A stretch of 64,000 bases of DNA, from contig JBIIRM010000005.1 of the NCBI GenBank assembly GCA_044341565.1, forward strand, positions 882 to 64,881, in the 5' to 3' direction. A program made the position numbers and the translations under genes. Below are positions 4,815-46,101 of the stretch, piece by piece. This DNA is from Minisyncoccia bacterium (lineage in GTDB: Bacteria; Patescibacteriota; Minisyncoccia; SW-4-49-11). The notes under the pieces are model-generated. The model was not told where the DNA came from and ran no database searches. It saw only the letters and a list, made by a program, of their open reading frames with translations. How positions within the stretch are numbered: the stretch's first letter is position 1; each line of letters begins with the position of its first letter.

Positions 4815-4841
4815 AAGAGGGGGAAATACCCCTCTTTTATT
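4813..4841. terminator. Bidirectional rho-independent terminator between convergent genes
   Basis: aaaagagggg-gaaata-cccctctttt: a 10-bp stem with A-run and T-run flanks, sitting between the 3' ends of 3810..4814(+) and 4852..5283(-). Confidence 0.7.
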
Positions 4842-4851
4842 GTATGAACTC

Positions 4852-8773: not shown

Positions 8774-9610
8774 ATGATTTCTTTCAAATTACACAATGGT
8801 TTTGATCGCCTCAAGATGTATAATGGATTCATGGGAGCTGTACATTTCTTCCAAGCTGGATTAATGTTATATATTTCTAAAGAATCTTTACTGCCTGTAT
8901 TTACCAATTATCTCAAATTTGATGCTACAAATCGTAGCGCTGTACCTATGCCAGTACAAGAAAAGTTATTTGATGTAAATATTGGACCAGCTGTTGCCCT
9001 ATTCTTATTATTATCAGCTATAGCCCATTTTATTACTATTTTACCAAGTGTATATCCTTGGTATATCAAAAATCTCAAGAAACATATTAATGTAATCCGA
9101 TGGTATGAATATGCTTTATCATCATCAATAATGATTGTAATAATAGGATTATTGGTTGGTATTTATGATTTCGCTACTCTCTTATTACTCTTTGGACTTA
9201 ATGCGAGTATGAATCTTTTTGGTCTTGTGATGGAGCAAATCAATCAAGATAGAAAAGAAGTAAATTGGCTTCCATATATATTTGGATGTATTGCCGGTAT
9301 AATCCCTTGGATTGTTATTTTCCTTCATTTCCAAGGAGCTCTTGCTAATGCCGATGTAGATGTGCCAAGTTTTGTATATTGGATTGTATTTTCATTATTT
9401 GCAGTATTTAATATATTTGCAATCAATATGTTCCTTCAATACAAAAAAGTTGGGCCTTGGAAATCATATGTATTTGGAGAAAAAATCTATGTTTTTCTAT
9501 CCCTATTTGCAAAAACATTATTAGCTTGGCAAGTATGGTCAGGAACTCTTAGGGGTCGTGAGAATGATGTATCAGCTGCTATTAACCATATTATTCACTT
9601 AATTTCATAG
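8774..9610 (+). CDS. Heliorhodopsin (7-TM retinal-binding photoreceptor, inverted topology family)
   Basis: 278-aa 7-TM protein with blocks matching the heliorhodopsin family: IRWYEYALSSSIMIVIIG, FGLNASMNLFGL, FGCIAGIIPWIVIF, VPSFVYWIVFSLFAVFNIFAINMFLQYKK, and the helix-7 Lys in SLFAKTLLAWQVWSGTL (the Schiff-base Lys position). Confidence 0.7.
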   Translation: MISFKLHNGFDRLKMYNGFMGAVHFFQAGLMLYISKESLLPVFTNYLKFDATNRSAVPMPVQEKLFDVNIGPAVALFLLLSAIAHFITILPSVYPWYIKNLKKHINVIRWYEYALSSSIMIVIIGLLVGIYDFATLLLLFGLNASMNLFGLVMEQINQDRKEVNWLPYIFGCIAGIIPWIVIFLHFQGALANADVDVPSFVYWIVFSLFAVFNIFAINMFLQYKKVGPWKSYVFGEKIYVFLSLFAKTLLAWQVWSGTLRGRENDVSAAINHIIHLIS

Positions 9611-13107: not shown

Positions 13108-13139
13108 CCCTCGTCTCCGGACGAGGGCTTTTTCTTTTT
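13108..13139 (+). terminator. Rho-independent terminator after the RHH gene
   Basis: ccctcgtc-tccg-gacgaggg: an 8-bp GC stem followed by ctttttcttttt. Confidence 0.7.
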
Positions 13140-13216
13140 CATAAAATCTATTTTTGTTATAAACTCAAATACTATGGGCGACTGAGAGGTCGTGAAGTTT
13201 TGTCTCCCTTTGGAGG
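13129..13216 (+). repeat. Repeat family R1, copy a (second copy at 14481..14569)
   Basis: A shared 30-mer tttttctttttcataaaatctatttttgtt, then actgagaggt[c/g]gtg[a/g]agttttgtctccctttggagg, about 85% identical between the copies. Each copy is followed by distinct GC-rich hairpins. Confidence 0.6.
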
Positions 13217-14425: not shown

Positions 14426-14569
14426 TTAAAGCTCTATCCACCCCACTGGTTCACCTCCCCAACCCTTGGTCACTCAGGATTTTTTCTTTTTCATAAAATC
14501 TATTTTTGTTGTAAAACCCAACCACTACGAGCAACTGAGAGGTGGTGGAGTTTTGTCTCCCTTTGGAGG
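14426..14569 (+). repeat. R2 partial copy 3 (14426..14442) fused to R1 copy b (14481..14569)
   Basis: ttaaagctctatccacc followed by the R1 30-mer and the actgagagg...ctccctttggagg block. More GC hairpins (ccctcaagagggg, cctgacgg) follow up to the hisS stop. Confidence 0.55.
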
Positions 14570-19100: not shown

Positions 19101-20405
19101 TTATATATACTTCTGAGCCTCTTCCCATTCCTCCTCAGATAAATTCCCTTTGATTCCTAGCGCTTTTATAGGTGAGGAAATAAATCTTTGCATCAATGCT
19201 ATCAATTCATTATAGGAAGTTGTCCTAATATTATTATAATAGTCATCGGGAGTATATATAATCCCCTCAGGATATTGTAATAAAGATCCATAAAACTCAT
19301 TCAAGGCATAAATACTAGAATAATATTGCTTAGAAGCACTTATTTGTGCTATTTTGAATCTTTCAATATCTTCTATTGTAATATATTGCGTAAAGTTATG
19401 TAATACGGTATTAATTATCTGTAGTGATTCAATAAGAGACTCTTTATTTATAGTATATGTTATTGCAATATTATAAGAACCTCCATAGTCATAATAATCA
19501 GTATTAACCCAATATATTAACCCCCTTTTCACTCTGAGTTCCTGTAATAAAATTGATGTCCAGAAATTTCCTAATGCTGTACGTAATAAAGCAAGTGAAG
19601 CACAATCTTTATAGTAAAAAGACCCTTGAAGTCCATAATTAAATACACCTTTTATATTGTCTTCTGAAGAATTGAGTACTATATTTGTAGAAGATACATT
19701 TTCTATTAGTGTGTTAGTAGACAAGGAATGAGAAATGCCATCTTCCTCTAAGATTATTGCCGAGATATCAGGAGAGATAATAACTAAATGAGCCTTATCT
19801 TTGGTATAATGCAATTGTGCATACTGGATATATTGCTCATACGAAATATTGTCTAAATCTCCAAATACATCTTGTGCTAAAGCTGATCCAAAGAAAAGAT
19901 TATCAAATGTACGTCGTTCTATATCAGTTTCTGAATCTTGTTTTTCTTGAGCAATGATTTTCTTTTCTTTATCAAATATCTCTTGAGATACTGATTCTTG
20001 ATCAAAATTTTTCAATAATAATTGAAGAGACGATATTAGATGAGCTGGATCTTGTATATGAGAATAATTGGTTAAATATGCTGCTGTGTAAGCACTAGCA
20101 CTAATACCATACTCTTCTAAAGTTTTTGCCTTAGTATATTCATCATCTCCTCCTGCCCAAAGATGTTCAAAAAAATGAGATAACCCTTGAGCATTAGCAT
20201 CATCAAGTGCATATCCTCGTGCAAACCAAAGAGATGCAGAAGACATAATTTGTTGCTTATCTTCTATTACTGTTGTCTTTATTCCTTGATATATCCCCTG
20301 TTTAATATTGGACATAATAATGTTGTTTAAACTATACTCAGTATATATAAAATAATGAGGGAAGGCAACTTGTACCTTCCCTGTTTGGAACATGGAGCTA
20401 AACAA
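19101..20405 (-). CDS. M16-family (pitrilysin/insulinase-like) zinc peptidase
   Basis: Inverted zinc motif HxxEH in GLSHFFEHLWAGG, with the overall M16 N-domain layout. The true start may be the internal Met (MSNIKQG, ~20315). Confidence 0.65.
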   Translation of the reverse strand: MFSSMFQTGKVQVAFPHYFIYTEYSLNNIIMSNIKQGIYQGIKTTVIEDKQQIMSSASLWFARGYALDDANAQGLSHFFEHLWAGGDDEYTKAKTLEEYGISASAYTAAYLTNYSHIQDPAHLISSLQLLLKNFDQESVSQEIFDKEKKIIAQEKQDSETDIERRTFDNLFFGSALAQDVFGDLDNISYEQYIQYAQLHYTKDKAHLVIISPDISAIILEEDGISHSLSTNTLIENVSSTNIVLNSSEDNIKGVFNYGLQGSFYYKDCASLALLRTALGNFWTSILLQELRVKRGLIYWVNTDYYDYGGSYNIAITYTINKESLIESLQIINTVLHNFTQYITIEDIERFKIAQISASKQYYSSIYALNEFYGSLLQYPEGIIYTPDDYYNNIRTTSYNELIALMQRFISSPIKALGIKGNLSEEEWEEAQKYI

Positions 20406-20418
20406 CTAATGTTGAGGC

Positions 20419-20517
20419 TTACTTGCCACCACCACCAGGTCGAGTAGGAGCGGGACCGCCGCCGCCAGTACCTTTCGTTCCACTTCCAGGGTTACCATGA
20501 CGATTGTTGTTGCCCAT
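20419..20517 (-). CDS. Glycine-rich micro-ORF 2 (32 aa: MGNNNRHGNPGSGTKGTGGGGPAPTRPGGGGK)
   Basis: ATG preceded by cggagaattacctca (GGAG about 11 nt upstream), an upstream context nearly identical to that of micro-ORF 1. GC-rich. The alternative reading is the 100-aa track ORF 20419..20721 in the same frame. Confidence 0.3.
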   Translation of the reverse strand: MGNNNRHGNPGSGTKGTGGGGPAPTRPGGGGK

Positions 20518-20569
20518 TGAGGTAATTCTCCGAAGTACTAAATGGATTAGACCTTGATACAGTGAGGGA

Positions 20570-20659
20570 TCATTTCCCCCGGGTACCCGAGCCACCACCA
20601 TGTCCACCGCCATTGCCGGTGCCGCCACCGGTTTTGGTTCCACCTGTTTGAGCTGCCAT
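20570..20659 (-). CDS. Glycine-rich micro-ORF 1 (29 aa: MAAQTGGTKTGGGTGNGGGHGGGSGTRGK)
   Basis: First ATG downstream of the predicted promoter, preceded by cggagattcatttca (GGAG). It has its own TGA stop and is in a different frame from the 100-aa track ORF. Confidence 0.3.
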   Translation of the reverse strand: MAAQTGGTKTGGGTGNGGGHGGGSGTRGK

Positions 20660-20705
20660 TGAAATGAATCTCCGAGCGAGGGTGTAATGAGACGGAAATG
20701 TCTCG

Positions 20706-20752
20706 CAATAAAATCTATCATGATTATTAATATTTGTCAATAGTTGTCAATT
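20706..20752 (-). promoter_or_regulatory. Strong sigma70-like promoter (two phased TTGACA boxes) driving the glycine-rich micro-ORFs and M16 peptidase
   Basis: The minus strand reads ATTGACAActATTGACAAatattaataatcatgaTAGATT. TTGACA has a 17-nt spacer to TAGATT; the second TTGACA has 17 nt to ATAATC. Confidence 0.45.
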
Positions 20753-20794
20753 ATATTAATTCTTCCTGAAAACCTCCTAGATTACCCACTCAAA

Positions 20795-20824
20795 GGTTCG
20801 AACATTGTCCAACTCGCGGAGCCA
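20795..20824 (+). repeat. Degenerate direct repeat of the tRNA-Asn 3' end (att-like remnant)
   Basis: ggttcgaa-cattgtcca-actcgcggagcca versus tRNA-Asn ggttcgaa-tcct-actcgcggagcca: exact matches of 8 and 13 nt, 1.8 kb downstream of the tRNA. A weaker third copy lies at 23282..23310 (tctaactcccgaagcc). Confidence 0.55.
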
Positions 20825-20895
20825 ACTCCCCTTAAACAGCTTAATCGTAATATTCTCAATTAATGCTATACTATATGTATATTTAACTCTATTAT

Positions 20896-22443
20896 ATGAA
20901 AGTTAGTAGAAAAATCTTTTTCATAGCCCCAGGGATTATATTGTTATGTGTAGTGATATTAAGTGGGTATATAATAATGAATAGTAATACTCAATCAGCT
21001 ACCTCTCCTAATACACCACCCTACTTAACGGAAGTAAGGGATTATACATTACATAATACTATTTCATTTATAAAACCAATTGATTATACAAAATACCAGG
21101 ATAATCAGGAAGATCTAGATATTGCTATGCAAAAAACCTATCTCGAGGGAGGAATAACTTTTGATGAATTTTTAGAACTGAATAGTATGGTAAATTTAAT
21201 AGATAATAATCTTAAAGATATAGAAGCAAATCTATATTACAACTCAGAAACTGTGCTATCTGGAGTTATTTTGAGCTCTAATAAAGAAGATTTTTATACA
21301 AATGCACGCCAAAAACTACAAGAGTTGAATATTAATTCCCCAGATCTCACCTCTCTCAAAATCACTGAGATATATTTTCGGACCACCTCTCAAGATTCTA
21401 GAGCTTTAGAGTTAGCTTATTTATTCAATATCAACACTGATGTTGAATTTAATAAAAATCTTAAAATAAAACTAGATAATGCTATTAACTCTAATAATTA
21501 CTCCGATTTAGAAAATACAGGATTAAATATATCTAGCCCTTATAATACCGATAATTATGGACTCAAAAGATTAAAAAGGGAGAATGAAGAAAAGACTAAG
21601 AGATTAGCACAAATTGAGTCCTGTATACTTGATTTATATATTCAAGAAGCCAATTTAAAGATTAGATTAAATCAACCTACATGGAGCACCAAAAAAGACC
21701 AATATACAGAAACTATATCTAATCTAAGTAATAAAATTGGATCAATAAACTCACAAGGAGAAAGGACTATAATAGGATGTGAACAATATCATTTCCACAA
21801 TATCCAAATCAGATTCACAAAACCACTCTCTATTAGTGATATTCAAGAGATTGAGAATACCTTACCATTAATTTATCCCAAAAAATATATAGCGGAATTA
21901 GATCCAGACTATAGGACTAACACTACTAGTGCAGAAATAGACATATTAAATGCTCAATTTGATGACTATGGACCTGAAGACTATACTTATCGTGATATAG
22001 ATTTAATAACCACCACATCTACTGAAACTTCACAGTTATTTGCTTTATTTAATCCTGGGAAAAATTGGGAAGATATGAAAAATAATTATTATCAAAATCG
22101 TACATACTTAAATATCCCTAAAGATAGTGTCGAGAAATATAGAAATGACCAGGATACAATCTATTACTTTACTAACAACCCTCAGTATACTAATTTAAGT
22201 ACTCAGTATATTGATGGTGTTACTCTCTTTACCACAACCCTAGACGATCCATATCTATGCTTACAACAATTATTAACATCAGATAACCACTCATCTTGTA
22301 GTGTATTCTCTTTAAATCAAAGCCAGAAAAAGCTCTTACAATCCTACATAAAATTGATTGAAATTACCCCTGTAACACCACATACCCACACAGACTTATA
22401 TAAATTTGAGGTAAGCCCAACTTCTTCTTTTTGGGTAAAGTAA
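20896..22443 (+). CDS. Hypothetical secreted/membrane-anchored protein (515 aa)
   Basis: N-terminal TM/signal anchor, then an Asn/Thr/Tyr-rich body with no recognizable domain. Confidence 0.5.
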   Translation: MKVSRKIFFIAPGIILLCVVILSGYIIMNSNTQSATSPNTPPYLTEVRDYTLHNTISFIKPIDYTKYQDNQEDLDIAMQKTYLEGGITFDEFLELNSMVNLIDNNLKDIEANLYYNSETVLSGVILSSNKEDFYTNARQKLQELNINSPDLTSLKITEIYFRTTSQDSRALELAYLFNINTDVEFNKNLKIKLDNAINSNNYSDLENTGLNISSPYNTDNYGLKRLKRENEEKTKRLAQIESCILDLYIQEANLKIRLNQPTWSTKKDQYTETISNLSNKIGSINSQGERTIIGCEQYHFHNIQIRFTKPLSISDIQEIENTLPLIYPKKYIAELDPDYRTNTTSAEIDILNAQFDDYGPEDYTYRDIDLITTTSTETSQLFALFNPGKNWEDMKNNYYQNRTYLNIPKDSVEKYRNDQDTIYYFTNNPQYTNLSTQYIDGVTLFTTTLDDPYLCLQQLLTSDNHSSCSVFSLNQSQKKLLQSYIKLIEITPVTPHTHTDLYKFEVSPTSSFWVK

Positions 22444-23362: not shown

Positions 23363-24091
23363 TCATCTATTTATCCAGGCGAAAATTCTGTTCAATTCCG
23401 ATATAATATCTTTATCTAATATTTTTCCATGAGCCATTATAATTCTTTTTGGATTTAAAACTTTAACCCGATCAATTGATTTTTTTAATAATTGATGATT
23501 ACCCCCAAATAATGCTCTTTGGTCTTTAGTTGTACCTCCATTTGGATGCAAAGCCCCACCTATATATGCTAAAGCTCGGAAAAATGGATTTATTTTCTTT
23601 GCTTCAAAATTCTCTATAATATCAGTTACAATCCAGGATTGACTAGGAAAATGAAAAAAAGTATACTCAGTCATAAATCGATTACCATACATAGGCAGAA
23701 TTTCTAAATCTGGAAAATAATCCTGCTTTAAATCCTTTAATTCCTTATTCCACCTTATATCTTGACCAGCTTTTTTACTCCGTCTTCGTACTCCATCACT
23801 GGCAAAAGTAACTGCTTCTGGATATGCTTTTTGGAAATCATATATATACCAATAGTGAATTTTATTTGGAGATATTAAATACTTTACATTTCCTAACTCA
23901 TCTAATTCTTGCTTCAAAGCACTCGTTAAACTAATTGGAGAGTGGATGAAAAGGTCATTATTAGAAAATCTTATTACTACCATTCTCGTAGTAAATGGCA
24001 TTCCATAAAAATATATTATAGGACCATCTACAATCCATAGATTTTCACTAATTAATTTTAACGTATGTATTGGTTGATACAAATTATCCAT
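23363..24091 (-). CDS. DUF4336-like protein (hypothetical)
   Basis: Pattern LWIVDGP...TTRMVVIRF.NNDLFIHSPI.LT..L..EL..LG.VKYLISPNK.HY resembles the DUF4336 family. Confidence 0.45.
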   Translation of the reverse strand: MDNLYQPIHTLKLISENLWIVDGPIIYFYGMPFTTRMVVIRFSNNDLFIHSPISLTSALKQELDELGNVKYLISPNKIHYWYIYDFQKAYPEAVTFASDGVRRRSKKAGQDIRWNKELKDLKQDYFPDLEILPMYGNRFMTEYTFFHFPSQSWIVTDIIENFEAKKINPFFRALAYIGGALHPNGGTTKDQRALFGGNHQLLKKSIDRVKVLNPKRIIMAHGKILDKDIISELNRIFAWINR

Positions 24092-24330
24092 ATTATTTTT
24101 ATGATTCTATTGTAATTATACACATTTATATATATTTTATCTACTTATAAAATTTATCTCCTCTCAAAACTATAGTGAGCCCCCTTTAGGGTAATTAGTA
24201 CTCTCTACCTCTCATTTTTATTATTGATTTTGAGAGAGTATGATGAGAAAAACGTAAGAATAAAGAATCCCCCCACTTAGGTGAGAGGATTGTTGGAATT
24301 AGAGTTTACTTATCTTTCGTAGAGATTAAC

Positions 24331-25302
24331 TCAGTGATTTGCCTTTGCTAATAAAGCCTGTTTACTAGGAATCCGTAGCTGATAAGCCCAACCAAGACGC
24401 TCCAGAAATCGTATGAAGTAGTAGGTAGGGTCTGGTAATGTCACTACCTTGTTACCCTGTAGGGTAAAGCCTTGTCTTGCTGAGTATTCGAAGCTATGGT
24501 GTAGATTATGCCAACCTTCGCCAAGAGTGATAATAGCCACCCAAGGGTTGTTACGACTACCATCGCGGGTAATGAATGGCTGATCACCTACTAAGTGGGC
24601 CACAGAGTTTACCGTAGCAACACCGTGGAACAAAAGAGTAGTACTCAGACAAAATGCACCCAACCATTCTATACCACCGATATGCCAGGAGATCCAAGCT
24701 AATGCCAAAGCTGGCACTATATGTAGTCTATCGATCAAACGTAATACAGGATCAGACTCTATATCAGCTGGTAGGGTACTAGGATGAAATCCAGGTGAAA
24801 GTATCCAACCTATCTGAGAATGCCAAAAACCATGCAGTCGATTTCTATACATCAGAGGGCTATGAGGATCATCCAAGGTATCAACATGACGATGATGAGC
24901 CTTGTGATGAGCCTTCCACCAACTTGGTCCCATCTGGCCTGCTGAGGCTGTTATTATGGATCCGATCCACCATACTAGTCTAGGAGCCTTATAGCTATTG
25001 TGAGTAATCAAGCGATGGTAAATGGCAGTAATTCCAAGCATCCGTACTAGGTATAATACTGTAGCCCAGAGGATGGCGTATAATCCAAGTCTCTCCCGAA
25101 ACAGCAGTAGACAGCCTATATGCGCAACCAGTATGAATACCGGTCCCATACCATGCAAAAACCGAAGGAGATGGGATTGGGAAATAGAATGGGAAGATAC
25201 TGCTGTGGAACTGATAGATTTTGAATTAAACATCAGCATATTCCAGTCTAAACTGGACCATAAGGACATAAACACCTTAGCATACTTATTATGTTTAATC
25301 AA
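24331..25302 (-). CDS. desC: Acyl-CoA/acyl-lipid delta-9 fatty acid desaturase (membrane di-iron, three His boxes)
   Basis: His boxes HRLITH, HKAHHRHVDTLDDPHSP and GEGWHNLHHSF match the stearoyl-CoA/DesC delta-9 desaturase family. The body is ~45% GC against a ~30% background. The AT-rich first ~50 codons suggest the true start may be an internal Met (~25149). Confidence 0.75.
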   Translation of the reverse strand: MIKHNKYAKVFMSLWSSLDWNMLMFNSKSISSTAVSSHSISQSHLLRFLHGMGPVFILVAHIGCLLLFRERLGLYAILWATVLYLVRMLGITAIYHRLITHNSYKAPRLVWWIGSIITASAGQMGPSWWKAHHKAHHRHVDTLDDPHSPLMYRNRLHGFWHSQIGWILSPGFHPSTLPADIESDPVLRLIDRLHIVPALALAWISWHIGGIEWLGAFCLSTTLLFHGVATVNSVAHLVGDQPFITRDGSRNNPWVAIITLGEGWHNLHHSFEYSARQGFTLQGNKVVTLPDPTYYFIRFLERLGWAYQLRIPSKQALLAKANH

Positions 25303-25349
25303 TATACAGAAATATATCTATTCTAGGATATGATACTTCTATCCTTCAA

Positions 25350-25382
25350 AGAAAAATCCCTCCAGCTGAACCAGAGGGATTG
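25350..25382 (-). terminator. Rho-independent terminator downstream of the ADO gene (minus strand)
   Basis: Plus strand aatccctc-cagctgaacca-gagggatt preceded by gaaaaa, i.e. stem plus T-run on the minus strand. Confidence 0.6.
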
Positions 25383-25401
25383 AATTAGATTGAATTGTAG
25401 A

Positions 25402-26103
25402 TCAGATTAGGGCTGCGGTAGCGAGCTTGGCGATTTCACGGGTGGAGAATCCGATTTTCGTCAAAGCTTCTTGATATGAGATGAGGAAATCCTCAATGAG
25501 GTCTTCCCTGTCCATTTGGAGGACGGCCGCGTCACCGGCTACCTGATCAAGCATAATGCGTACCAATGGGAGATTGTCCCGATTGGCCTGCTCCAACTCC
25601 TTACGAATAGCTTCGAAATTAGACCTAAGCCATTCTTGACCATAATTGAGATGAGCGTATTCATCCTTGACTACTCCCTCGGTGATTTTCCGTGCAAACG
25701 GATCAGCAACTGGGATATAGATGTGATAAGCTGCAATTGCAAAGGCCTCGATGAGAATCGCTTGAATCAGCAAACAGGTGACTACCTTCCTCTCTGTAAA
25801 AGCTTTTTGAAAATTACCATGTAGGGGCAAGAAAAACTCTTTAGCAAAAGGTATATCTGCTTGCACTCCCAAGTTGCGGGCACAGGCAGTGAAACCCTTC
25901 ATATGCCTCAGCTCCATACCCGCAAGGCGGGTAAGCTCTTCAGCCTGATCGGGTAGCAAGCTACCAAGGGAAATGTAATTGTCATAAGCTTCTTGCTCAC
26001 CTTCAATCACAATTGCATTGATGCGACTATAAGCATCTTTGTAATCCCTGGTGGTGAAATCTGGTAGACCTTCCACAAGTGGTTTAGAAGACGTAATTGA
26101 CAT
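25402..26103 (-). CDS. ado: Aldehyde-deformylating oxygenase (cyanobacterial-type fatty aldehyde decarbonylase, ferritin-like di-iron)
   Basis: Very close match throughout to cyanobacterial ADO: [128 protein letters not shown] is clearly elevated relative to flanking genes. Confidence 0.9.
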
Positions 26104-26317
26104 GGTAGATACTGGATAAAATCCAATGGGGCAATCTCATTATACACTTTTTATACCTTTTGTATATAGGTGCATACATCCTATTATCTTAATAATATAC
26201 TATCAATTTCATACTCTCATATATATTAAAATTAGCTTTATAAGCTTTTAAAACCCATATTAAGTATATATAAGTTAAAGGTAAAGTGAGGTCAAGGTGA
26301 AGACTATTTCTGTACCC

Positions 26318-26342
26318 CCTTGTGCAAATAATGTGCACAAGG
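26318..26342. promoter_or_regulatory. 9-bp inverted repeat (ccttgtgca-aataatg-tgcacaagg) in the divergent ado/fasciclin intergenic region; candidate operator
   Basis: Exact 9-bp arms, 39 nt upstream of the fasciclin ATG. Confidence 0.3.
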
Positions 26343-26380
26343 TATACTTAAAAGGTATTAATAACTAATATCGTACCGAT

Positions 26381-27022
26381 ATGAAGACAAAGTCATTGAA
26401 ACACAGTATTGCCCTGTCCCTATTAGCTTTTGCTCTTGTATTAAGTCCTCTTTATGCAAGCGCTGCTACTGATACTATCACTGGTTTGTTAAACAAAACA
26501 AGTGATTTATCTACTCTTAAAACTCTTGTAGGGTTGGCAGAATTAGATGGAGCATTAGATAGCACTTCTTCCCAGTACACTGTATTCGCACCTAAGGACT
26601 CTGCTTTCGCAGCACTTCCTAAAGAAGTTACTGATGCATTAGTAAAGCCAGCTAATAAAACTGTTCTCGCTGGAATTCTAAAATATCATGTAATTCCTAG
26701 CAAAATTCTTTCTACTGATTTAGCTGCAACTCAAACTGTAACTACCTTAAATGGAGATACTTTAGTTGTAAAAAAAGCTGATGGTAAAGTTACTATCACT
26801 GACAAAGTAGGTACTATTTCTACTGTAACTACTGCTGATGTAGAAGCTACAAATGGAGTTGTTCATATTGTAGACAAAGTTCTTCTTGACAAAGCATATG
26901 ACTTTTCTACCCCAACAAAATTACAAAGCACAGGTATTAACTTAGTTATTCCTGCAATTGTAAGTGGTATATTAATTCTAGGTGCAATCTTTATCTATAC
27001 GAGAAAATCTTCAAAGATCTAA
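26381..27022 (+). CDS. Fasciclin (FAS1) domain surface protein with signal peptide and C-terminal TM anchor
   Basis: FAS1 blocks TVFAPKDSAFAALP, LKYHVIP and VVHIVDKVLL; N-terminal signal and a C-terminal hydrophobic segment. Confidence 0.8.
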   Translation: MKTKSLKHSIALSLLAFALVLSPLYASAATDTITGLLNKTSDLSTLKTLVGLAELDGALDSTSSQYTVFAPKDSAFAALPKEVTDALVKPANKTVLAGILKYHVIPSKILSTDLAATQTVTTLNGDTLVVKKADGKVTITDKVGTISTVTTADVEATNGVVHIVDKVLLDKAYDFSTPTKLQSTGINLVIPAIVSGILILGAIFIYTRKSSKI

Positions 27023-27103
27023 TAGTATATTGTCCTGATTAAAAAGAGGTGTTAGTATTACTATAGCCTCTTTTTAATTTTTCTATCAAGCTTAATCCTA
27101 TTT

Positions 27104-27745
27104 ATGAATAGACATTTTTTGAAAATTTTAAATACATTTTTATTAATACTTATTATTATAAGTGCTGTATATATTATAGGAGCACCATTTTTTCCTCAAT
27201 TAATAAAAGCTGAGAAGACTGAAAATCCTTCTGAGGAAGCTCAAAGCTCAATAGAGATAGTTAATTCACCTACTAATACAGCCCCTATAGCATTACAATC
27301 TCCTGAAGCTAAGCCAAAAGAAAGACCTCCTGCTGATAAGAATAATGCTGATAAAAACTTTAATATCGCTATATCATCTCTTAAATTAAATTCTAAACTT
27401 TTTACGAGTAATACTAATAAGGATTTAGGAAAAGGTATTTGGCATAGAAGTAGTACTGGTAATCCTCTTTCTGGAGGAAATATGGTTATATCTGCTCATA
27501 GATTTCTGTATACTGGGAATAATAACACTTTTTATCGTCTTCCAGACATCAAATTAGATGATACTATAGTGATAACATGGGAAGGGAAACAATATGATTA
27601 TAAGGTAACAAAATTATTTGAAGTTACTCCAGATGCAGTTGAAATTGAAGCTCCCACAGAAGAGCATATATTAACTCTCTATACTTGTATTCCTCTTTGG
27701 ACTAGTGCTAAACGATTTGTGGTACAAGCAGCCCCCCTATTCTAA
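27104..27745 (+). CDS. Sortase family transpeptidase
   Basis: N-terminal TM anchor, with conserved His (ISAHRF), TLYTC catalytic Cys motif and a downstream Arg. Confidence 0.7.
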   Translation: MNRHFLKILNTFLLILIIISAVYIIGAPFFPQLIKAEKTENPSEEAQSSIEIVNSPTNTAPIALQSPEAKPKERPPADKNNADKNFNIAISSLKLNSKLFTSNTNKDLGKGIWHRSSTGNPLSGGNMVISAHRFLYTGNNNTFYRLPDIKLDDTIVITWEGKQYDYKVTKLFEVTPDAVEIEAPTEEHILTLYTCIPLWTSAKRFVVQAAPLF

Positions 27746-27952
27746 TATTTCTCTATTATGACTGAAATTAAAAAAACAATATTATTAAGCTTTATCTTAT
27801 TTGTATTGATAGCTATTATGTTTATTGCACAATACTCACAACTATAATAATTTAAAAGAAAATTAAGGATATATCTGGTATTATAGCTTGACTTTTACCT
27901 CATTTCCTGTTAGTGTTTCAAAGCATACTCTTCGGGGTATCGTTCTTTCACA

Positions 27953-29158
27953 ATGGAGCATTTAACCATGTCTGCTCAGACACGTGTTGAGAGATTTTTT
28001 GATAAGGCAGGAGTTGACCAAACCTTTATTACTGCAACTTCTAATTTTTATAAAGCTTTCAATGGACGGTTCACCCTTGGAATGGGTGAATCTTATATCA
28101 ATGGCAGTTTTGCGATTGGCGATGAGAATCTCATCGCAATGTTCACCAAGATTTTTGCAAGCTTGAATGGATTCTTGCGGGGAGATGATTATGCGGGGTT
28201 TAGCTCACTGGGATTTTATCGGCTGTATCAGCTGATGAATGCCACCCAAATGATCAATTGGCAGTACATTCGTGCAAAGTATTTTGCGGATATTCACTAT
28301 GAGCTACCTCATCAGCTTTTTGTCCAGATGCTTGGCCCCTCTCGGGCTTATAGCTCTGGGTATTGGCCAGAAGGGGTGGAGACTCTAGACCAAGCCCAGG
28401 ATGCCAAGTTTGACTTGATTATCCGCAAGCTTGGCTTAGAAGCTGGCGACACCGTCCTCGACTTCGGTTGTGGGGCGGGTAGTTTTGGCAGATATGCAGG
28501 ATCTCGCGGTATTCGAGTCGTTGGACTCAATATCTGCCAGGAGCAACTCGCTTATGCTCGAGCTCACAATGACCAAGAAGTTACTGCCATTTACCTTGAT
28601 TTTAATTTGGTAACACAAAGTGTTGCTGAGTTACAATCAATTCTCAAACCCTATGGGATTGAGAACTTTGATGCTGTGACCTTTATTGGCTCGATTGAGC
28701 ATGTGGGGTGGAAGAATTATGATTCCCTCTATCGCAAACTCAATCAGCTTATGAATCCTACGGGACGGATTCTCTGCCATGTTATTGGATCCTATATTCC
28801 ATTACCGGTGGCCGATCCCTATATCATGACCAAGATTTTCCCTGACTCGCAGCTTGCTGTGAACAGTGAAATGACAAGGGCAACTGAGAAGGCTGGTTTC
28901 CAGCTAATGGATTGGCATAACCTGGAAACAGGTATTCACTCCTATGCCAAGACACTGAGAGCTTGGCTTAACAACTTCCAAACCAACTGGGAAACTATCA
29001 AGCCCTCTATGCCTCACAAAGATAAGGAAGCCTTTTACAGGGAATGGGTATTCTACCTAATGCTCTGTATTGGAGCCTTCGAGTCTGACTTTGTCAATGT
29101 TGGACACTATGTGTTCCGCAAGACTGCAGACACTCGCCCATTCACTCCAGCCCGCTAA
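27953..29158 (+). CDS. Cyclopropane-fatty-acyl-phospholipid synthase-like SAM-dependent methyltransferase
   Basis: CFAS/mycolic-acid-synthase family layout with SAM motif I VLDFGCGAGSFGRYAG. GC is elevated (up to ~50% in the 3' half). Confidence 0.7.
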   Translation: MEHLTMSAQTRVERFFDKAGVDQTFITATSNFYKAFNGRFTLGMGESYINGSFAIGDENLIAMFTKIFASLNGFLRGDDYAGFSSLGFYRLYQLMNATQMINWQYIRAKYFADIHYELPHQLFVQMLGPSRAYSSGYWPEGVETLDQAQDAKFDLIIRKLGLEAGDTVLDFGCGAGSFGRYAGSRGIRVVGLNICQEQLAYARAHNDQEVTAIYLDFNLVTQSVAELQSILKPYGIENFDAVTFIGSIEHVGWKNYDSLYRKLNQLMNPTGRILCHVIGSYIPLPVADPYIMTKIFPDSQLAVNSEMTRATEKAGFQLMDWHNLETGIHSYAKTLRAWLNNFQTNWETIKPSMPHKDKEAFYREWVFYLMLCIGAFESDFVNVGHYVFRKTADTRPFTPAR

Positions 29159-29171
29159 ATCAATCACTCAT

Positions 29172-29197
29172 AAGGAAGCATTTCGCTTCCTTTTTTA
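29172..29197 (+). terminator. Rho-independent terminator after the methyltransferase gene
   Basis: aaggaagc-atttc-gcttcctt followed by ttttttatt. Confidence 0.65.
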
Positions 29198-29266: not shown

Positions 29267-29626
29267 ATGAAAAATTTGGGTATAGAGATTGTAGGAGATC
29301 TCAAAGGTATTGATAAAGAATTTTTAACTCATATTAATAGTGATGAAATTCAGGCTGAGATTTCTCGACTTATTACTCATTATGGATTCAATGAGCTGGG
29401 AAACTATTATCATTCTTTTGAACCAGGTCTTACAGCTGCTGTAGCGCTTGCTGAATCTCATGTTACCTTTCATACTTGGCCGGAATTTGGATATGTAAGC
29501 TTGAATGTTTTTACCTGTAATTATACTAAGGATAATGATGATAATGCTAAAGCTTTATTTGATGATATTGCCTCCCTATTCCGAGCAGAGAATATAGATA
29601 AACAAATTATTTTACGCAATCATTAG
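29267..29626 (+). CDS. speH: S-adenosylmethionine decarboxylase proenzyme (small, SpeH/SpeD class 1)
   Basis: Pyruvoyl self-cleavage motif AESHVTFHTWPE in a 119-aa protein. Confidence 0.85.
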   Translation: MKNLGIEIVGDLKGIDKEFLTHINSDEIQAEISRLITHYGFNELGNYYHSFEPGLTAAVALAESHVTFHTWPEFGYVSLNVFTCNYTKDNDDNAKALFDDIASLFRAENIDKQIILRNH

Positions 29627-29679
29627 AAATAAAAAAGCCCCCGACAAATGCCGGGAGCTGAGTGGAAGGGCAAAAGCCC

Positions 29680-29943
29680 TTATTGTTTGTGAACCTTCCC
29701 AGGTAGTGAAGGGTTGGGGTTGGTCGGATCCACACCCAACAGCGCCGGCCCAGTTAGGGCTGCAAGGCCCACAACCAAAAGACCTAGCAACACCTTCTTG
29801 AAGGGTGAGCGACGATCCTGACGAGGAGGGAGAGGGGGATCGAGAACAACTCGATCCACTTTGAGGTTACCCCCTTTGAGAAAAGGGGGAAGCTCAGGCC
29901 CCACTCGGGCAACATTGAGAAAGGCGGGAAGTTCAGGTGCCAT
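29680..29943 (-). CDS. Hypothetical proline-rich small membrane protein encoded in a GC-rich patch
   Basis: 87-aa ORF (~55% GC) with one TM helix. A minus-strand hairpin plus T-run (29638..29668) lies just downstream. Coding status is uncertain because GC-rich DNA yields long ORFs by chance. Confidence 0.3.
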   Translation of the reverse strand: MAPELPAFLNVARVGPELPPFLKGGNLKVDRVVLDPPLPPRQDRRSPFKKVLLGLLVVGLAALTGPALLGVDPTNPNPSLPGKVHKQ

Positions 29944-30065
29944 TGAATGAACAAAACAATGTATTTCAAAAAAAATTATACCACAAAAACCCTATTTTGT
30001 CAATATACAATAACATTATTTTAACATATGCTTGCGAATTTTACTGGAAAAGGTATACTATCTTT

Positions 30066-31220
30066 ATGAATATATTACCCCCTTTGCGCTATATTAAATC
30101 TTTATTCTCTGCCCGTATAAGCCCATTGATTACGGTACATATTGATGGGGCGGACTTATTACATAATTTGAGAGAATATAGACAAGCCTATCCAGATATA
30201 CAATTTGCACCTGTACTCAAAAGCAATGCCTATGGACATGGACTAATCCCTATTGCTCGTATATTAGATAACGAGAATATTCCTTTTTTGATTGTCGACT
30301 CTTATTATGAGGCTTTGACCCTGCGGCAAAATGATATCAAATCCCCTATTCTAATTATTGGGTATATTGCTCCTGAAATTATCAAAAAATCTCGGATCAA
30401 AAATGTATATTTCACCGTGACAAGTCTAGCCCAATTGCAGAGAATTGATGATATTATTCGCCACCCCATATCTATACATCTCAAAATCGATACTGGAATG
30501 CATAGACAAGGTTTATTGCCGACTGAAATTCATCAAGCTATTACTATTATTAAAAAGAATTCCTCTATACAATTACAAGGTATATGCTCTCATCTGGCTG
30601 ATGCGGATAGCAAGAGACGCAAATATAATAAAGCTCAATTAGAGCAATGGGAGCAAAGTATTCAATTTTTTAAAACGACTTTTCCTAATCTCAAGTATTA
30701 TCATATATCTGCTAGTGCTGGGCTTATACATACGGCTAAATCTCATCATAATCTCGCTCGATTAGGTTTAGGATTATATGGAATTAGTATTATTGAAAAT
30801 AATAAACTCTCATTAAAACCTGCTCTCAAACTCACCTCTATTATTAGTGGGATAAAAGTTATTAAAAAAGGAGATGCCGTTGGATATAATAATACCTTTA
30901 TTGCCAAAAATGATATGTTAATCGCGACTATACCCGCTGGTTATGCTGAGGGAGTCGATCGCAGATTATCTAATATCGGGCAGGTAGAGATAGACGGAAC
31001 TTTATGCCCTATTATTGGGCGAGTAAGTATGAATATTACCACTATTGATATTACACATATACCTAATATTCAAATTGGGGATATAGTGACTCTTATCAGC
31101 AATGACAATTCCTCCCCTATTTCTGCCAATGCTATCGCTAAAATATGCGATACTATTCCCTATGAAATTCTGATACATATTCCAGGGTATTTGCACCGAG
31201 AGATCATTAAAATAAAATAA
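30066..31220 (+). CDS. alr: Alanine racemase
   Basis: PLP-lysine motif PVLKSNAYGHGL and the C-terminal domain. Start taken at MNILPPLRY (30066) rather than the track ORF start at 29937. Confidence 0.85.
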   Translation: MNILPPLRYIKSLFSARISPLITVHIDGADLLHNLREYRQAYPDIQFAPVLKSNAYGHGLIPIARILDNENIPFLIVDSYYEALTLRQNDIKSPILIIGYIAPEIIKKSRIKNVYFTVTSLAQLQRIDDIIRHPISIHLKIDTGMHRQGLLPTEIHQAITIIKKNSSIQLQGICSHLADADSKRRKYNKAQLEQWEQSIQFFKTTFPNLKYYHISASAGLIHTAKSHHNLARLGLGLYGISIIENNKLSLKPALKLTSIISGIKVIKKGDAVGYNNTFIAKNDMLIATIPAGYAEGVDRRLSNIGQVEIDGTLCPIIGRVSMNITTIDITHIPNIQIGDIVTLISNDNSSPISANAIAKICDTIPYEILIHIPGYLHREIIKIK

Positions 31221-31475
31221 TATTGAAATTGCATATAGGATATGATAAAGTAAAAAGGAATTTGAACTTTAGGTATGACCACACCTCCCTCAGGCTATGT
31301 ACATCTTACCGATGTTCCCCATACTGAATTGAGCTCCCGACTTAACTCTTGGGAAACCGCATTACCAGGGACACCAAGATCCGATGGGACAACCCCCATT
31401 TTTGTCCAGGATTCAGAATTCACTCAATGGAAGTCTCTGCAATGCGACTCCACCCGCTAACCACAATACCACCCA

Positions 31476-31510
31476 AAGCCCCGCCAATGATGGGGCTTTT
31501 CCACATTTTT
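31476..31510 (+). terminator. Candidate rho-independent terminator closing a GC-elevated intergenic transcript
   Basis: aagcccc-gccaatgat-ggggctt followed by ttccacattttt. Confidence 0.4.
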
Positions 31511-31533
31511 AGGGCAATACTTTTCCCCTTCTC

Positions 31534-32514
31534 TTAGTTTGCAATATATTTTTTATTAATATTAACTGAGGCATACCCAAGTCCAATAAATACAAATCCC
31601 AGAAAAACAAGTGATATTGGCCAACCAAGTGAATCTGCAAAATACTCCCCTGTAATATACGAAATATGAGCAATAAGGAAAAGAGTACTTATAATAAGAA
31701 TACTACGACTTTTCAGATATACCGATAGGGCGACACCTCCAAGCACAATAATAAAGTAGAATAGTTGCCACAAGCCCGAATCAAAAACTTGTAAAAATGC
31801 AGCGCCAAGAAATCCAATAATACCAAAGAAATGAAGTATTCCAATAAGTGGTTTATTCCAGCCATCACGAAAAGCATATGCTAATAACAAGTAACTTAGA
31901 CCTATTATCATAGTTATATATTCATATACATTTTGATAGCTATAGTATTGTTGGTCCAAAATAGCTCCTACAGCAAAATATACAGAGGCTGTACCATTTA
32001 CTATTGCAAAAAGAGTCAAGACAGGACTTTTATGTACAGAGTTTAGGGATAGATAGGCTATAAAAATAACTCCAAATGTAATCGCAACAGGCCATAAGGA
32101 AACCGCCTCATTACTTAATTCTGAAAGTGTAACAAGTGCCCCACCGGGAATTAATAACCCCCCAATGGCATGAAAGGCATTTCCTATATTATCATTTGGT
32201 TTATTCTTGAGTAAGGTTGAACCGATAGCAGTAATTAATATTCCAAGACCTAAAGTTACTACTATGCGTCCAAAAGATCCAATATCATCCCAAATTTGAG
32301 AAACAAAAATAATAATACCGATAATCACAATAGCTGCTCCCAGAACATAAAGCATTTTTGTTATAGAAAAAGAAGTGAATTTATTGGCTTTTTCTGGTGC
32401 ATCTATACGTTGTGATGTAGGGATAAGATTAAAACGAGTTGTTATTTCTTCAGGACCTATTTCTCCTGCACTTAATTTACGAGAAAGCTCTTGTAATAAT
32501 TCTTCTTTATTCAT
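31534..32514 (-). CDS. Hypothetical polytopic membrane protein
   Basis: 326 aa with about 9 TM helices after a soluble N-terminal segment. Confidence 0.5.
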   Translation of the reverse strand: MNKEELLQELSRKLSAGEIGPEEITTRFNLIPTSQRIDAPEKANKFTSFSITKMLYVLGAAIVIIGIIIFVSQIWDDIGSFGRIVVTLGLGILITAIGSTLLKNKPNDNIGNAFHAIGGLLIPGGALVTLSELSNEAVSLWPVAITFGVIFIAYLSLNSVHKSPVLTLFAIVNGTASVYFAVGAILDQQYYSYQNVYEYITMIIGLSYLLLAYAFRDGWNKPLIGILHFFGIIGFLGAAFLQVFDSGLWQLFYFIIVLGGVALSVYLKSRSILIISTLFLIAHISYITGEYFADSLGWPISLVFLGFVFIGLGYASVNINKKYIAN

Positions 32515-38391: not shown

Positions 38392-40047
38392 CTAACTTCT
38401 ATCAATAAATTCTTCTCTTGAGCTGGCATCTGGTTTTGTAATAGTATTAGGGATAAGTGCTGATAATAATGGTTCACTTTCAGCCCCAAGACGTGCTAAT
38501 TCATAGGCTAAATAGCGATAATTAATATGCCCTCCTGGTCGCACTCGAAGTTGTGTCATATAGCTGATTTCTTTTGGAGAGGCATGAAAAATACTGATAA
38601 AAATATGTCCAAAGGGTAATAATTGCGTCCAGAGATATTGAGGAAACCATGTATATTCACGAGTAAGTGCAACAAAGTCCTGCAATTTGACATAATACCC
38701 TTGTAAATCCTTCTCAAATTCCTCGCGAATAGAGGTGAATACAGGGTTATCAGTGAGATATAATGGTAAGGTATAGCCATTATATAATGATGCCTCATAA
38801 TTCTCAGTGCTAAGAGTTGGAATATATCGTCCCCATGCACGATGACGATTCAAATCTCTAAGCTCGGAATTAGAGCTCATCAGTACAAAGCTATGAGTAT
38901 TTACCCGAAACAAATTACCCATTTGCTTATGATGATTAAAGTCTTTGAATAGTATTTGAGATATAGTTTTTTCCTGCTCTTCTGTGAGTGTTTCAGTCCA
39001 ATCTAGTACTGATTTAACACTTGCATTTGGATATAGGGTAAGAATATTCTGAAAGAGAATTTTAATCCCTGTACTTAAATTAATATCTAATAATTCAACA
39101 TTGAGATTATGATAGCCAATAGTTTCTGATATCTCTAAATATTGCTCTATTTTTAATTCCTCATTAAGATATGTTTTAAGTTCACTAAGATTATTGCGTG
39201 TAATGGTATCTGCCTGAGTATGACGAATTAAATCAGGAGCTTCTGCAGTATAGTTAATTTCCTTTGCATAGGCTTCATCTGGCGCAAATAATACTTCTAA
39301 TTGCTCAGCTAAATATACTAATTCTTGTTCTGCAGAGGCTTTAAACACAGAGATTAATCGAGCCCATTCCCGAGCTGAGGTAATATAGGCAAGAGAAGTT
39401 TTATTCATAAGCCCTGAGGGGAGAAAATATCGGGTAGAGTCAAATACCCGAGCTGTAAGAGCTCCCGTCTCTGATTTATTATTCTCATCAATACCATAGC
39501 CTTTAATATAGGTACTGGTTAATTCAGCCTGCCAATATTTATATTTATCAAGAGCATATTGTTGTAAATCTAAGAGAGATTCATTCACCTTATCATAATT
39601 CTCTGCATCAGAATTAATACCGAGACTATTGAGTCCAAGTGGTTTACTATTCCCAAAATCTTGATATCGAGTTGAGCGCTGTTGCCCACCTCCTACACTG
39701 GTTTCATTAAAGAAAATTGTAGAATAATGATCGGGAATTTGCTCAATATAGGCAAATAGTTGAGCCATATCAGCTACTGAAGAATGGCCATAATTACGAA
39801 ATATATTGGCTAATTTTTCATTGGCATTACTTCCTGCAGCTTGAATTTCTTGGAATAATTCCTCTGCAGATAATGCTGAGCGAGAAAATCTTGCTCCAGC
39901 AAAAGCCATAATAGAGGCTGTTTGCTTACCCGCATTCGGAAGAGCGGTTCTGACAGTGTATCCTGTGCGAGTATCAGTCACTGAGACAATAACTAAATCG
40001 GTTTTATCTGGGTCTGAGACCGTGAATGTAAAATGCTCATATGCCAT
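38392..40047 (-). CDS. Hypothetical large protein (550 aa) immediately downstream of dcd; weak ThyX-like RHR motif
   Basis: Start taken at MAYEHFTF (40047), 1 nt after the dcd stop. Contains ...SELRDLNRHRAWGRY..., reminiscent of the ThyX RHR-x-RY signature but with different spacing. No confident family assignment. Confidence 0.45.
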   Translation of the reverse strand: MAYEHFTFTVSDPDKTDLVIVSVTDTRTGYTVRTALPNAGKQTASIMAFAGARFSRSALSAEELFQEIQAAGSNANEKLANIFRNYGHSSVADMAQLFAYIEQIPDHYSTIFFNETSVGGGQQRSTRYQDFGNSKPLGLNSLGINSDAENYDKVNESLLDLQQYALDKYKYWQAELTSTYIKGYGIDENNKSETGALTARVFDSTRYFLPSGLMNKTSLAYITSAREWARLISVFKASAEQELVYLAEQLEVLFAPDEAYAKEINYTAEAPDLIRHTQADTITRNNLSELKTYLNEELKIEQYLEISETIGYHNLNVELLDINLSTGIKILFQNILTLYPNASVKSVLDWTETLTEEQEKTISQILFKDFNHHKQMGNLFRVNTHSFVLMSSNSELRDLNRHRAWGRYIPTLSTENYEASLYNGYTLPLYLTDNPVFTSIREEFEKDLQGYYVKLQDFVALTREYTWFPQYLWTQLLPFGHIFISIFHASPKEISYMTQLRVRPGGHINYRYLAYELARLGAESEPLLSALIPNTITKPDASSREEFIDRS

Positions 40048-40048
40048 A

Positions 40049-40627
40049 TTATTCTTCTTTATTTTCAAAATTTTTATGCATATCACTTGCTTGTACTCCT
40101 CTTGAGTCATAATATTTACTTCCTAGAGAGGCTGATCCATAAGGATTTTGGGCAGGATTTTTGAGCTCATAAAAAGCAATTTGAGCAATTTTCATTTCTG
40201 GATAAAGCCGAATTGGTACCGTATTGGTATTTACAAATTCAAGAGTGGCATTGAGTTTATTCCCGGGGTCAATAAATCCAGCTGTGGTATGTACTATTAA
40301 TCCGTATCGAGCAAGAGAACTTTTTCCCATAATTTGACAGGCATATTTCTCATTACATCCAAAATAATCTTTGGTTACCCCTAATACAAATTGACCTGGA
40401 TGAATTACAAAATACTCTTCCTTATCTGTTAATATAACTTTTTCCATAAATTCATGTACTGATTTCTTGGGGTCAATATATTCAAATTTGTGACTATTAA
40501 AAATCATAAATTCATATCCAAGTAAAACATCATAGCTAGCAGGTTGAAGTCGAGCTTCATCAAAATCATTAATGATAATATCCCCTAATTCGATTCCCTT
40601 CTTCATATCGACATCAGATAATTGCAT
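40049..40627 (-). CDS. dcd: dCTP deaminase
   Basis: GKSSLARYGLIVHTTAGFIDPG matches the Dcd/dUTPase-fold catalytic block. 192 aa. Confidence 0.85.
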   Translation of the reverse strand: MQLSDVDMKKGIELGDIIINDFDEARLQPASYDVLLGYEFMIFNSHKFEYIDPKKSVHEFMEKVILTDKEEYFVIHPGQFVLGVTKDYFGCNEKYACQIMGKSSLARYGLIVHTTAGFIDPGNKLNATLEFVNTNTVPIRLYPEMKIAQIAFYELKNPAQNPYGSASLGSKYYDSRGVQASDMHKNFENKEE

Positions 40628-45729: not shown

Positions 45730-46101
45730 GTGACACATTCCTGGATTCCTTCTCTCCCTAAACAGGACTTAGGGGCACCCGATCCCAAAACCATTATCAA
45801 AGAACATCTTTTAGATTTAATCCGTAGGGATTTGACAGAAATCAATACTGATGAGTTTTCATCCATGCTTAAACTCCTTCACATCAATGTTCTCAAGCAA
45901 GTGTTTAATAAATATAGGCTTAGCGAGATTCCGCTGGAGGCAACTGAGTATTCTCGGGTTATATCAGCTCTTCACTATATAAATAATCGACTTCCATCTC
46001 ACTTTGAGGAGTTAGATGGTGACTATAAGGTAATCGATCGGCAATATAGCATTATACAAAGCTATTTAGACTCAATCATACTTCAAATTCCACAACCCTA
46101 A
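45730..46101 (+). CDS. Hypothetical protein
   Basis: 123-aa ORF ending exactly at a strong rho-independent terminator. Confidence 0.45.
   Translation: MTHSWIPSLPKQDLGAPDPKTIIKEHLLDLIRRDLTEINTDEFSSMLKLLHINVLKQVFNKYRLSEIPLEATEYSRVISALHYINNRLPSHFEELDGDYKVIDRQYSIIQSYLDSIILQIPQP

Follow-up and report, generated by a model that had tools for sequence, protein, structure and literature searches.

How does a gene of the cyanobacterial alkane pathway come to reside in a bacterium of the Candidate Phyla Radiation (CPR, or Patescibacteria), and what might its product do there? The question is raised by a 64,000-nt stretch of contig JBIIRM010000005.1 (positions 882 to 64,881 of the forward strand; Minisyncoccia assembly GCA_044341565.1), hereafter the window, which encodes an aldehyde-deformylating oxygenase (ADO, gene ado) next to a desC-type membrane fatty-acid desaturase and, beyond a fasciclin and a sortase gene, a methyltransferase (MT) of the cyclopropane fatty acid (CFA) synthase family. 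ADO converts a fatty aldehyde, with O2 and four electrons, to an alkane and formate, and the cyanobacterial pathway in which it is paired with acyl-ACP reductase (AAR, gene aar) was reportedly described by Schirmer et al. in 2010 (structures 2OC5 and 6JZU). The enzyme has been described as unique to cyanobacteria (PMC3903477), metagenomic ado genes have been assigned to these organisms (PMC10176705), and our literature search found no report of ADO in CPR. The enzymes themselves are known; what is new is the lineage, together with their separation from the pathway and the different genomic context.

By sequence, the window protein is a bona fide member of the ADO family, with 390.4 bits against TIGR04059 (cut-off 222.65), 385 bits against PF11266 (cut-off 28) and an alignment to PDB entry 2OC5 at E = 1.1e-110. 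It carries the di-iron ligands E36, E64, H67, E119, E148 and H151 within the motifs EGEQEA, ELRH, IEAFA and DEYAH, at positions which we take to be those of the SeADO ligands E32, E60, H63, E115, E144 and H147.

The initial annotation, made from the letters of the sequence, had singled out the desaturase, ado and MT as genes of foreign base composition, at roughly 42-55% GC in a genome of about 30% GC. The figures need correction, with the window at 34.2% GC overall and the three genes at 44-46% in a per-gene count; the observation itself holds for GC content, for GC content at third codon positions (GC3) and for codon usage. Against a background of 56 open reading frames (ORFs) of the window (median GC3 0.221; standard deviation from the median absolute deviation 0.043), GC3 reaches 0.383 in the desaturase, 0.462 in ado and 0.468 in MT, which corresponds to robust z values of 3.8, 5.6 and 5.8 and to the third, second and first ranks. 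By codon-usage distance among the window ORFs they rank fourth, first and third, and they form the only GC-rich islands of at least 800 nt. As had been stated, the genes interleaved with them (fasciclin, sortase and speH) are rich in AT, with GC3 of 0.15-0.20. All six ORFs were found in place with the expected Pfam domains; for the desaturase, annotated as 24331..25302, the frame stands, and its start is moved from the TTG at 25302 to the ATG at 25269, which is the most likely one and the one seen in all orthologues and gene calls.

Such a composition could also betray a chimeric assembly, or a CPR bin contaminated with cyanobacterial DNA. That explanation was excluded, and we attach next to no probability to it, because the identical ADO protein in the identical gene order was recovered from several datasets, on three contigs of independent assembly, and at least five further lineages have homologous loci (the contigs concerned are designated by L numbers below). 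In addition, GC-rich and AT-rich genes alternate on single contigs, the GC3 of the genes lies 20-40 points below that of any cyanobacterial homologue, and the flanks are specific to CPR. The genome itself is that of a CPR bacterium: among 185,579 species genomes, the sole close relatives of its MT are found in metagenome-assembled genomes labelled Paceibacterota, Minisyncoccia or 'Ca. Saccharibacteria', and the window encodes a sortase, a pilin-like protein with N_methyl and Laminin_G_3 domains, a heliorhodopsin, a peroxiredoxin and housekeeping genes, while no fatty-acid synthesis (fab), respiratory or ferredoxin genes were found in its 64 kb. The heliorhodopsin (8774..9610, plus strand; PF18761, 2.7e-94) is full-length and is consistent with a photic-zone lifestyle of this bacterium.

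Where ado came from is indicated by its closest relatives. The protein is about 84% identical to that of Cyanobium, and its best named matches are Cyanobium, Vulcanococcus and freshwater Synechococcus, as the initial annotation had anticipated in expecting cyanobacterial top matches for both ADO and the desaturase. In a neighbor-joining tree, the five CPR copies group with the cyanobacterial sequence P0063 in 214 of 300 bootstraps, and they are monophyletic on their own in 41 of 300. The substitution L163F is common to the CPR proteins and P0063 alone, the other 116 cyanobacterial sequences having leucine. P0063 was considered as a sixth CPR copy and rejected because its contig has 66.8% GC and shows a creatininase-ado context. 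As far as sequence comparison goes, these results show that ado was captured from a Cyanobium-type freshwater picocyanobacterium. They also show that it came without aar: the donor locus reads creatininase-ado-aar-accA, and the pairing is lacking in the window and at eight CPR loci, where tblastn found neither aar nor a relic of it. The initial annotation was right in seeing no aar beside ado, neither the ORFs nor tblastn giving one. With Cyanobium AAR and AccA as queries, tblastn found neither gene in the window, L001, L003, L004, L005 or L006, and relics of aar or creatininase were likewise absent from the window, L003-L006, L088, L089, L093 and L094.

The non-coding surroundings of ado bear on how often this capture took place. 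Some 45 nt upstream of the gene, containing TGTATAAT, recur in each of the five CPR lineages and have no counterpart in the upstream regions of cyanobacteria, and about 55 nt after the stop codon, with a hairpin, are conserved in the window, L004, L088 and L094. These downstream 55 nt have no clear homology to the cyanobacterial ado-aar spacer, no convincing homology was found between the non-coding flanks and their cyanobacterial counterparts in general, and the terminator motif used as a probe gave 0 matches against metagenome contigs. Because the upstream block and the downstream hairpin are common to the CPR lineages, a single insertion followed by divergence is favored on sequence grounds. 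Two independent acquisitions, which would sit well with a dS of about 2 between the window and L094 and with the 41 of 300 bootstraps for the CPR copies alone, are judged less likely, since insertion site, non-coding flanks and L163F are all shared. A hairpin with a T-run follows each of desaturase, ado and MT, in agreement with the initial annotation, which had given every gene its own terminator; for ado and the desaturase, sequence comparison shows that each has acquired non-cyanobacterial promoter-like and terminator-like flanks of its own. A phage vector was also considered and found no support, as none of 50,697 phage records carries ADO or a close desaturase, the only desaturase matches being 33% identical (Acinetobacter phage).

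The desaturase has a parallel origin. It scores 70.6 bits against PF00487 (cut-off 29.7), carries the histidine boxes HRLITH, HKAHH and HNLHH, and shares its superfamily with the SCD1 structures 4ZYO and 4YMK (E of about 1e-23). With 48.6 bits it falls below the cut-off of 400 for the DesA-family delta-12 model NF049918; the label 'stearoyl-CoA desaturase (delta-9)' given by the source was assigned by homology alone. The protein is 67-79% identical to picocyanobacterial ones, with Cyanobium, Vulcanococcus and Synechococcus as best named matches, and the CPR desaturases form a monophyletic group in 200 of 200 neighbor-joining bootstraps, their sister being P0192 (78% identity), which is encoded on contig L091 (65% GC) next to glnN. 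The relationships show the gene to be, on phylogenetic grounds, a second capture from picocyanobacteria. Freshwater picocyanobacteria carry accessory desC genes that are variable (PMC9361551) and offer a donor pool. The CPR copies resemble these delta-9 acyl-lipid desaturases in the 78% identity, the three histidine boxes and nearly all conserved columns (one or two changes, two of them in the window protein's case, at 96 cyanobacterially conserved positions); they differ in residing in CPR genomes, in a divergent N-terminus of about 40 residues and in their mobility. The block 24263..25326 (about 1,064 nt, comprising a short upstream region, the ORF and the hairpin) is common to the window and the ado-less CPR contig L089, a pattern by which the gene appears as a unit of about 1.06 kb that moves between divergent CPR backbones. 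Since donor ado loci have no desaturase nearby, sequence comparison also shows that the two genes came from different donor loci. Their composition has been partly ameliorated: GC3 of ado declines from 0.72-0.87 in the donors to 0.63 in L094, 0.51 in L004 and L088 and 0.47 in the window, and that of the desaturase from 0.87 to 0.37-0.385. Atypical composition, a phylogeny nested within the donors and a patchy presence in close relatives, which together mark horizontal gene transfer, are found for both genes.

The third GC-rich gene has a different history. The MT scores 179.8 bits against PF02353 (cut-off 27) and aligns over its full two-domain length to the structure 6BQC of the E. coli CFA synthase (residues 45-373; E = 1e-38). 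Its likeness to that enzyme and to the CMAS family extends to the S-adenosylmethionine motif VLDFGCGAG. E249, H276, I278 and Y331, which are invariant in the CPR family, align with E239, H266, I268 and Y317. Together with C139, these are presumably the bicarbonate/active-site residues of the E. coli enzyme. The CPR protein departs from that enzyme in having a serine (S135) for C139, an identity of about 30% and scores under the NCBIfam equivalog cut-offs (218 against 400 for NF008686, PRK11705; 154 against 600 for NF053839; 125 against 650 for CfaB), and the residues named do not separate cyclopropanating from methylating members. Some 32 sequences of 59-95% identity, all from CPR, make up its closed subfamily; the next relatives, at 37% identity or less, belong to Desulfobacterales, Nitrospira, Pseudomonas and others, and no cyanobacterial relatives were found. 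Since its relatives are all from CPR and the order rhodanese-MT-speH-alr is found in relatives without ado or desaturase, comparison of the sequences and loci shows MT to be an older resident gene of the CPR clade, not a cyanobacterial one. Its GC3 of 0.39-0.47 is found in every CPR lineage (window, L004, L005, L006, L093, L094), including those without ado and desaturase, and persists despite near-saturated synonymous sites (dS 1.66 between the window and L005) among neighbors of about 0.2; this may reflect gene-specific synonymous constraint or repeated replacement.

The cyanobacterial acquisition proposed in the initial annotation therefore stands for ado and the desaturase, by their best named matches and their nesting in the trees, and fails for MT. 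The functional repurposing and the novel hydrocarbon module that it also proposed are conjectural. That the three genes were acquired together from a cyanobacterium as one module, as their similar GC content and their location within 5 kb might have suggested, is highly improbable: MT is resident and predates ado and the desaturase at the locus, and the latter two are unlinked in the donors and occur apart in CPR lineages, L094 having ado only and L089 the desaturase only.

The history of the locus can be followed across the CPR relatives. In L005, L006 and L096 the arrangement is rhodanese-MT-speH-alr, with ado and desaturase absent beside MT. L094 reads ado-fasciclin-sortase-MT-speH-alr and has no desaturase, and L093 is the same, with its contig ending inside ado. 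The window has DUF4336-desaturase-ado-fasciclin-sortase-MT-speH; L003 and L004 have DUF4336-desaturase-ado-MT-speH, and the 2.2 kb contig L088 desaturase-ado and the start of MT, all three lacking fasciclin and sortase. L089 and L090 hold the desaturase block without ado, adjoining a gene that matches the edge of L006. In L097 (Ga0207935_1000092, 2744..4934) ado and desaturase are missing, MT is truncated and DUF4336 fragmented, and the downstream genes are 98-100% identical to those of the window, which means that the island is decaying in some populations. With gene content varying in this manner, the region between the M16 peptidase gene and MT-speH-alr is a hot spot of presence and absence. 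The fasciclin and sortase genes have a dynamic of their own: the region containing them is 97% (L093) and 91-93% (L094) identical to the window, above the 75-85% of the adjacent MT, which suggests a recent exchange of the two genes between lineages. The C-terminus of the fasciclin protein resembles a sorting signal (KLQSTG, a hydrophobic segment and RKSSKI), and with the adjoining sortase it looks like a cargo-sortase pair.

The captured genes have been kept in working order, judging by their substitution patterns. Among CPR lineages dN/dS is 0.05-0.16 for the ADO core, with dS up to about 2 (cyanobacterial pairs, 0.015-0.06), and 0.18-0.23 for the desaturase, which shows ado and the desaturase to be intact and, by this measure, under purifying selection in at least four to five CPR lineages; MT has values of 0.12-0.15. 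What the proteins would do can be approached from the lipid economy of the host. According to a passage in PMC12455944 that cites Probst et al. (2020), CPR bacteria lack fatty-acid synthesis and recycle host lipids. Since such cells do not make fatty acids and build their membranes from host lipids, the enzymes of the island most likely tailor scavenged lipids once these have been taken up. We consider it rather probable, for the reading as a whole, that the host is a lake-water, Paceibacteria-like CPR bacterium and that the region is a variable accessory island in which two captured O2-dependent di-iron lipid enzymes, next to a resident MT, would act on lipids taken from another cell. The desaturase would introduce cis double bonds into the bound acyl chains of the scavenged lipids, and MT would methylenate or methylate those double bonds; ADO would turn fatty aldehydes, either supplied by the host or arising from lipid oxidation, into inert alkanes and formate, with electrons coming from a generic ferredoxin or flavodoxin.

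It has to be noted that several observations weigh against this reading. Neither an electron donor (ferredoxin, flavodoxin, FNR) nor a source of aldehydes was found in the 64 kb window, and ferredoxin- or rubredoxin-type cysteine motifs are absent from all window ORF fragments of at least 40 aa. Since close relatives have lost the island or carry it in decay (L097), its function is dispensable. The identity of the donor is no proof of a host relationship. At 162 columns with a conservation of at least 98% in cyanobacteria, the CPR ADOs show 6-11 changes against a cyanobacterial mean of 0.5, and because of this excess their specificity may have shifted. Finally, the docking interface of ADO for AAR consists of acidic residues of helix 7 and of R218 (PMC7089970), and the equivalents of SeADO E196, E200, D201 and R218, together with the gate residue, are invariant in the five CPR ADOs, a retention that would be needless if the enzyme works alone.

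This retained surface is what gives substance to the alternative that ado is not orphaned and that aar, or another aldehyde-forming reductase, lies elsewhere in the genome, with the CPR bacterium making alkanes from scavenged fatty acids. The sequence examined is a fraction of the genome, the window amounting to about 10%, so there is room for such a gene, and aar might exist outside it. Alternatively, helices 7 and 8 might be constrained as the substrate entrance, which they also form (PMC7089970), in which case their conservation may be structural. The tblastn searches for AAR, AccA and creatininase were empty in the window and the CPR loci examined, and AAR needs acyl-ACP or acyl-CoA, neither of which CPR are expected to make; we regard this alternative as unlikely. 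Still less probable, in our estimate, is the recruitment of ADO to another job, such as consumption of O2 or peroxide or action on a different aldehyde or lipid, in place of the formation of C15/C17 alkanes. The excess changes at conserved columns would fit it, as would the missing partner gene, R62G and K66R, which flank the iron ligands and arose in the sub-clade of the window, L004 and L088, and T150A/L, which falls inside the EYxH ligand motif. Against it, the enzyme keeps every ligand, the gate residue and about 150 of the 162 conserved columns, and over long distances its dN/dS matches the low values of cyanobacteria.

The tailoring of scavenged lipids by captured enzymes, which we continue to prefer, raises the question of who the host is. 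Two separate captures from one narrow donor clade suggest a close physical association of these CPR bacteria with picocyanobacteria. It is conceivable, and we put it forward tentatively on the sequence evidence, that this lake clade, living on picocyanobacteria, carries out an ADO reaction independent of AAR, the first such outside cyanobacteria, and turns host- or oxidation-derived aldehydes into hydrocarbons in a cell unable to make fatty acids. By analogy to the methyl-alkane route of cyanobacteria, those aldehydes may derive from chains first desaturated and methylated by the neighboring enzymes. A comparably tentative account accepts the same evolutionary history and dispenses with the host tie: environmental picocyanobacterial DNA would have entered by pilus-mediated competence, and the genes would serve general membrane homeostasis in cold, oxic lake water. 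The pilin-like protein of the window would agree with it, as would the abundance of picocyanobacteria in the same kinds of samples and the lack of any other long cyanobacteria-like island in the 64 kb. It is less readily reconciled with two separate captures from the same narrow donor clade, and with the lipid substrates of both enzymes, given that a CPR cell has to obtain lipids from another cell in any case.

Set against the cyanobacterial AAR-ADO pathway, the CPR enzyme is alike in passing the TIGR04059 cut-off, in its identity to Cyanobium, and in its ligands, docking helix and gate residue, whereas it differs in its CPR host, in the absence of aar and accA from the locus and the CPR sequence examined, in its own promoter- and terminator-like flanks, in its more numerous changes at conserved sites and in having the desaturase, the fasciclin-sortase pair and the CFA-synthase-like MT for neighbors. 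Horizontal transfer of lipid-handling genes into Patescibacteria has been reported (PMC12455944), and such cases share with the auxiliary metabolic genes of cyanophages, and with this locus, that a dependent organism keeps genes of the organism it lives on or with; here, the donor is a cyanobacterium, the cargo includes ADO and no phage vector was seen among the phage records. Metagenomic studies take ADO as a marker for alkanes made by cyanobacteria (for example PMC10176705); at the present locus, a different phylum keeps it stably, and the partner gene is missing. CPR lineages of fresh water mostly lack an assigned host, and two independent Cyanobium-type captures provide a concrete, testable candidate. 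Stolen lipids, the captures further suggest, are remodeled by CPR with O2-dependent enzymes and not put to use unaltered. For enzymology, this ADO, having evolved for long with no aar beside it, amounts to a natural experiment on which contributions of AAR the enzyme requires. The features of the island and its immediate neighbors are collected in the table.

Table. Features of the lipid-gene island and adjoining genes (window coordinates)
Feature	Position	Strand	Support and remarks
DUF4336 protein	23363..24091	-	Pfam DUF4336 5.8e-11; AT-rich; resident gene at the island's left side; in L003-L006; fragmented in L005 and L097
Terminator-like hairpin with T-rich tail after desaturase	24266..24291	-	11-pair stem; within block 24263..25326
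desC-type (delta-9 family) membrane fatty-acid desaturase, 312 aa	24331..25269	-	Pfam FA_desaturase 2.3e-19, 70.6 bits
Terminator-like hairpin with T-run directly after ado	25355..25381	-	12-pair stem
ado, aldehyde-deformylating oxygenase, 233 aa	25402..26103	-	Pfam Ald_deCOase 1.4e-115, 385 bits
Promoter-like element upstream of ado, TATACA-16-TATAAT	26139..26166	-	Consensus scan 10/12; -10 within the conserved TGTATAAT block
Fasciclin-domain surface protein	26381..27022	+	Pfam Fasciclin 6.1e-33; GC3 0.18; AT-rich resident cargo of the island
Sortase, partner of the fasciclin gene	27104..27745	+	Pfam Sortase 1.5e-21; GC3 0.15
CFA-synthase-family S-adenosylmethionine-dependent methyltransferase (MT), 401 aa	27953..29158	+	Pfam CMAS 8.7e-53, 179.8 bits
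Terminator-like hairpin after MT	29172..29192	+	8-pair stem with T-run
speH, S-adenosylmethionine decarboxylase	29267..29626	+	Pfam AdoMet_dc 5.5e-19; right-hand neighbor of MT in every relative; marks the resident backbone

Apart from this island, the window has several shorter GC-rich stretches. At the Rfam gathering threshold it yields two tRNAs only, and permissive scans of 20200..20900 and 29500..31650 for structured RNAs gave nothing credible. In the short island 20291..20787 (minus strand), GC reaches 57%, and two small peptides rich in glycine and proline are encoded in tandem, for which a single 100-aa ORF (20419..20721) was called; the island has no Pfam, NCBIfam or Rfam match and is partly conserved in L004 and L094. 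Directly after speH, region 29627..30016 (up to 59% GC) contains an 87-aa ORF on the minus strand (29680..29943) with one hydrophobic helix and no family match. A promoter consensus without mismatch, TTGACA-17-TATAAT extended by TG (30003..29975), precedes it; the ORF shows 90% nucleotide conservation in L004 and has a weaker homologue (41% at the amino acid level) in L096. The GC-rich intergenic stretch 31221..31564, between alr and a DUF2157 gene, has no Rfam match, is conserved in L093 (87%) and L094 (75%), and may be an undescribed RNA or small gene. Upstream of rpsF and ssb, a 123-aa ORF without family match (45730..46101, plus strand) ranks fourth in the window by GC3 (0.36) and second by codon-usage distance. 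Two repeats were also seen: a dispersed one of 89 nt, whose copies (13129..13216 and 14481..14569, 89% identical) each lie in a GC-rich intergenic region, and, upstream of the gene at 59436, a stretch of about 73 nt duplicated in tandem (59211..59279 and 59284..59352, 91% identical). Finally, an unusually long protein of 572 aa with a weak ThyX (Thy1) match, encoded at 38392..40110 on the minus strand, belongs to a cluster of 33 members in related CPR contigs.

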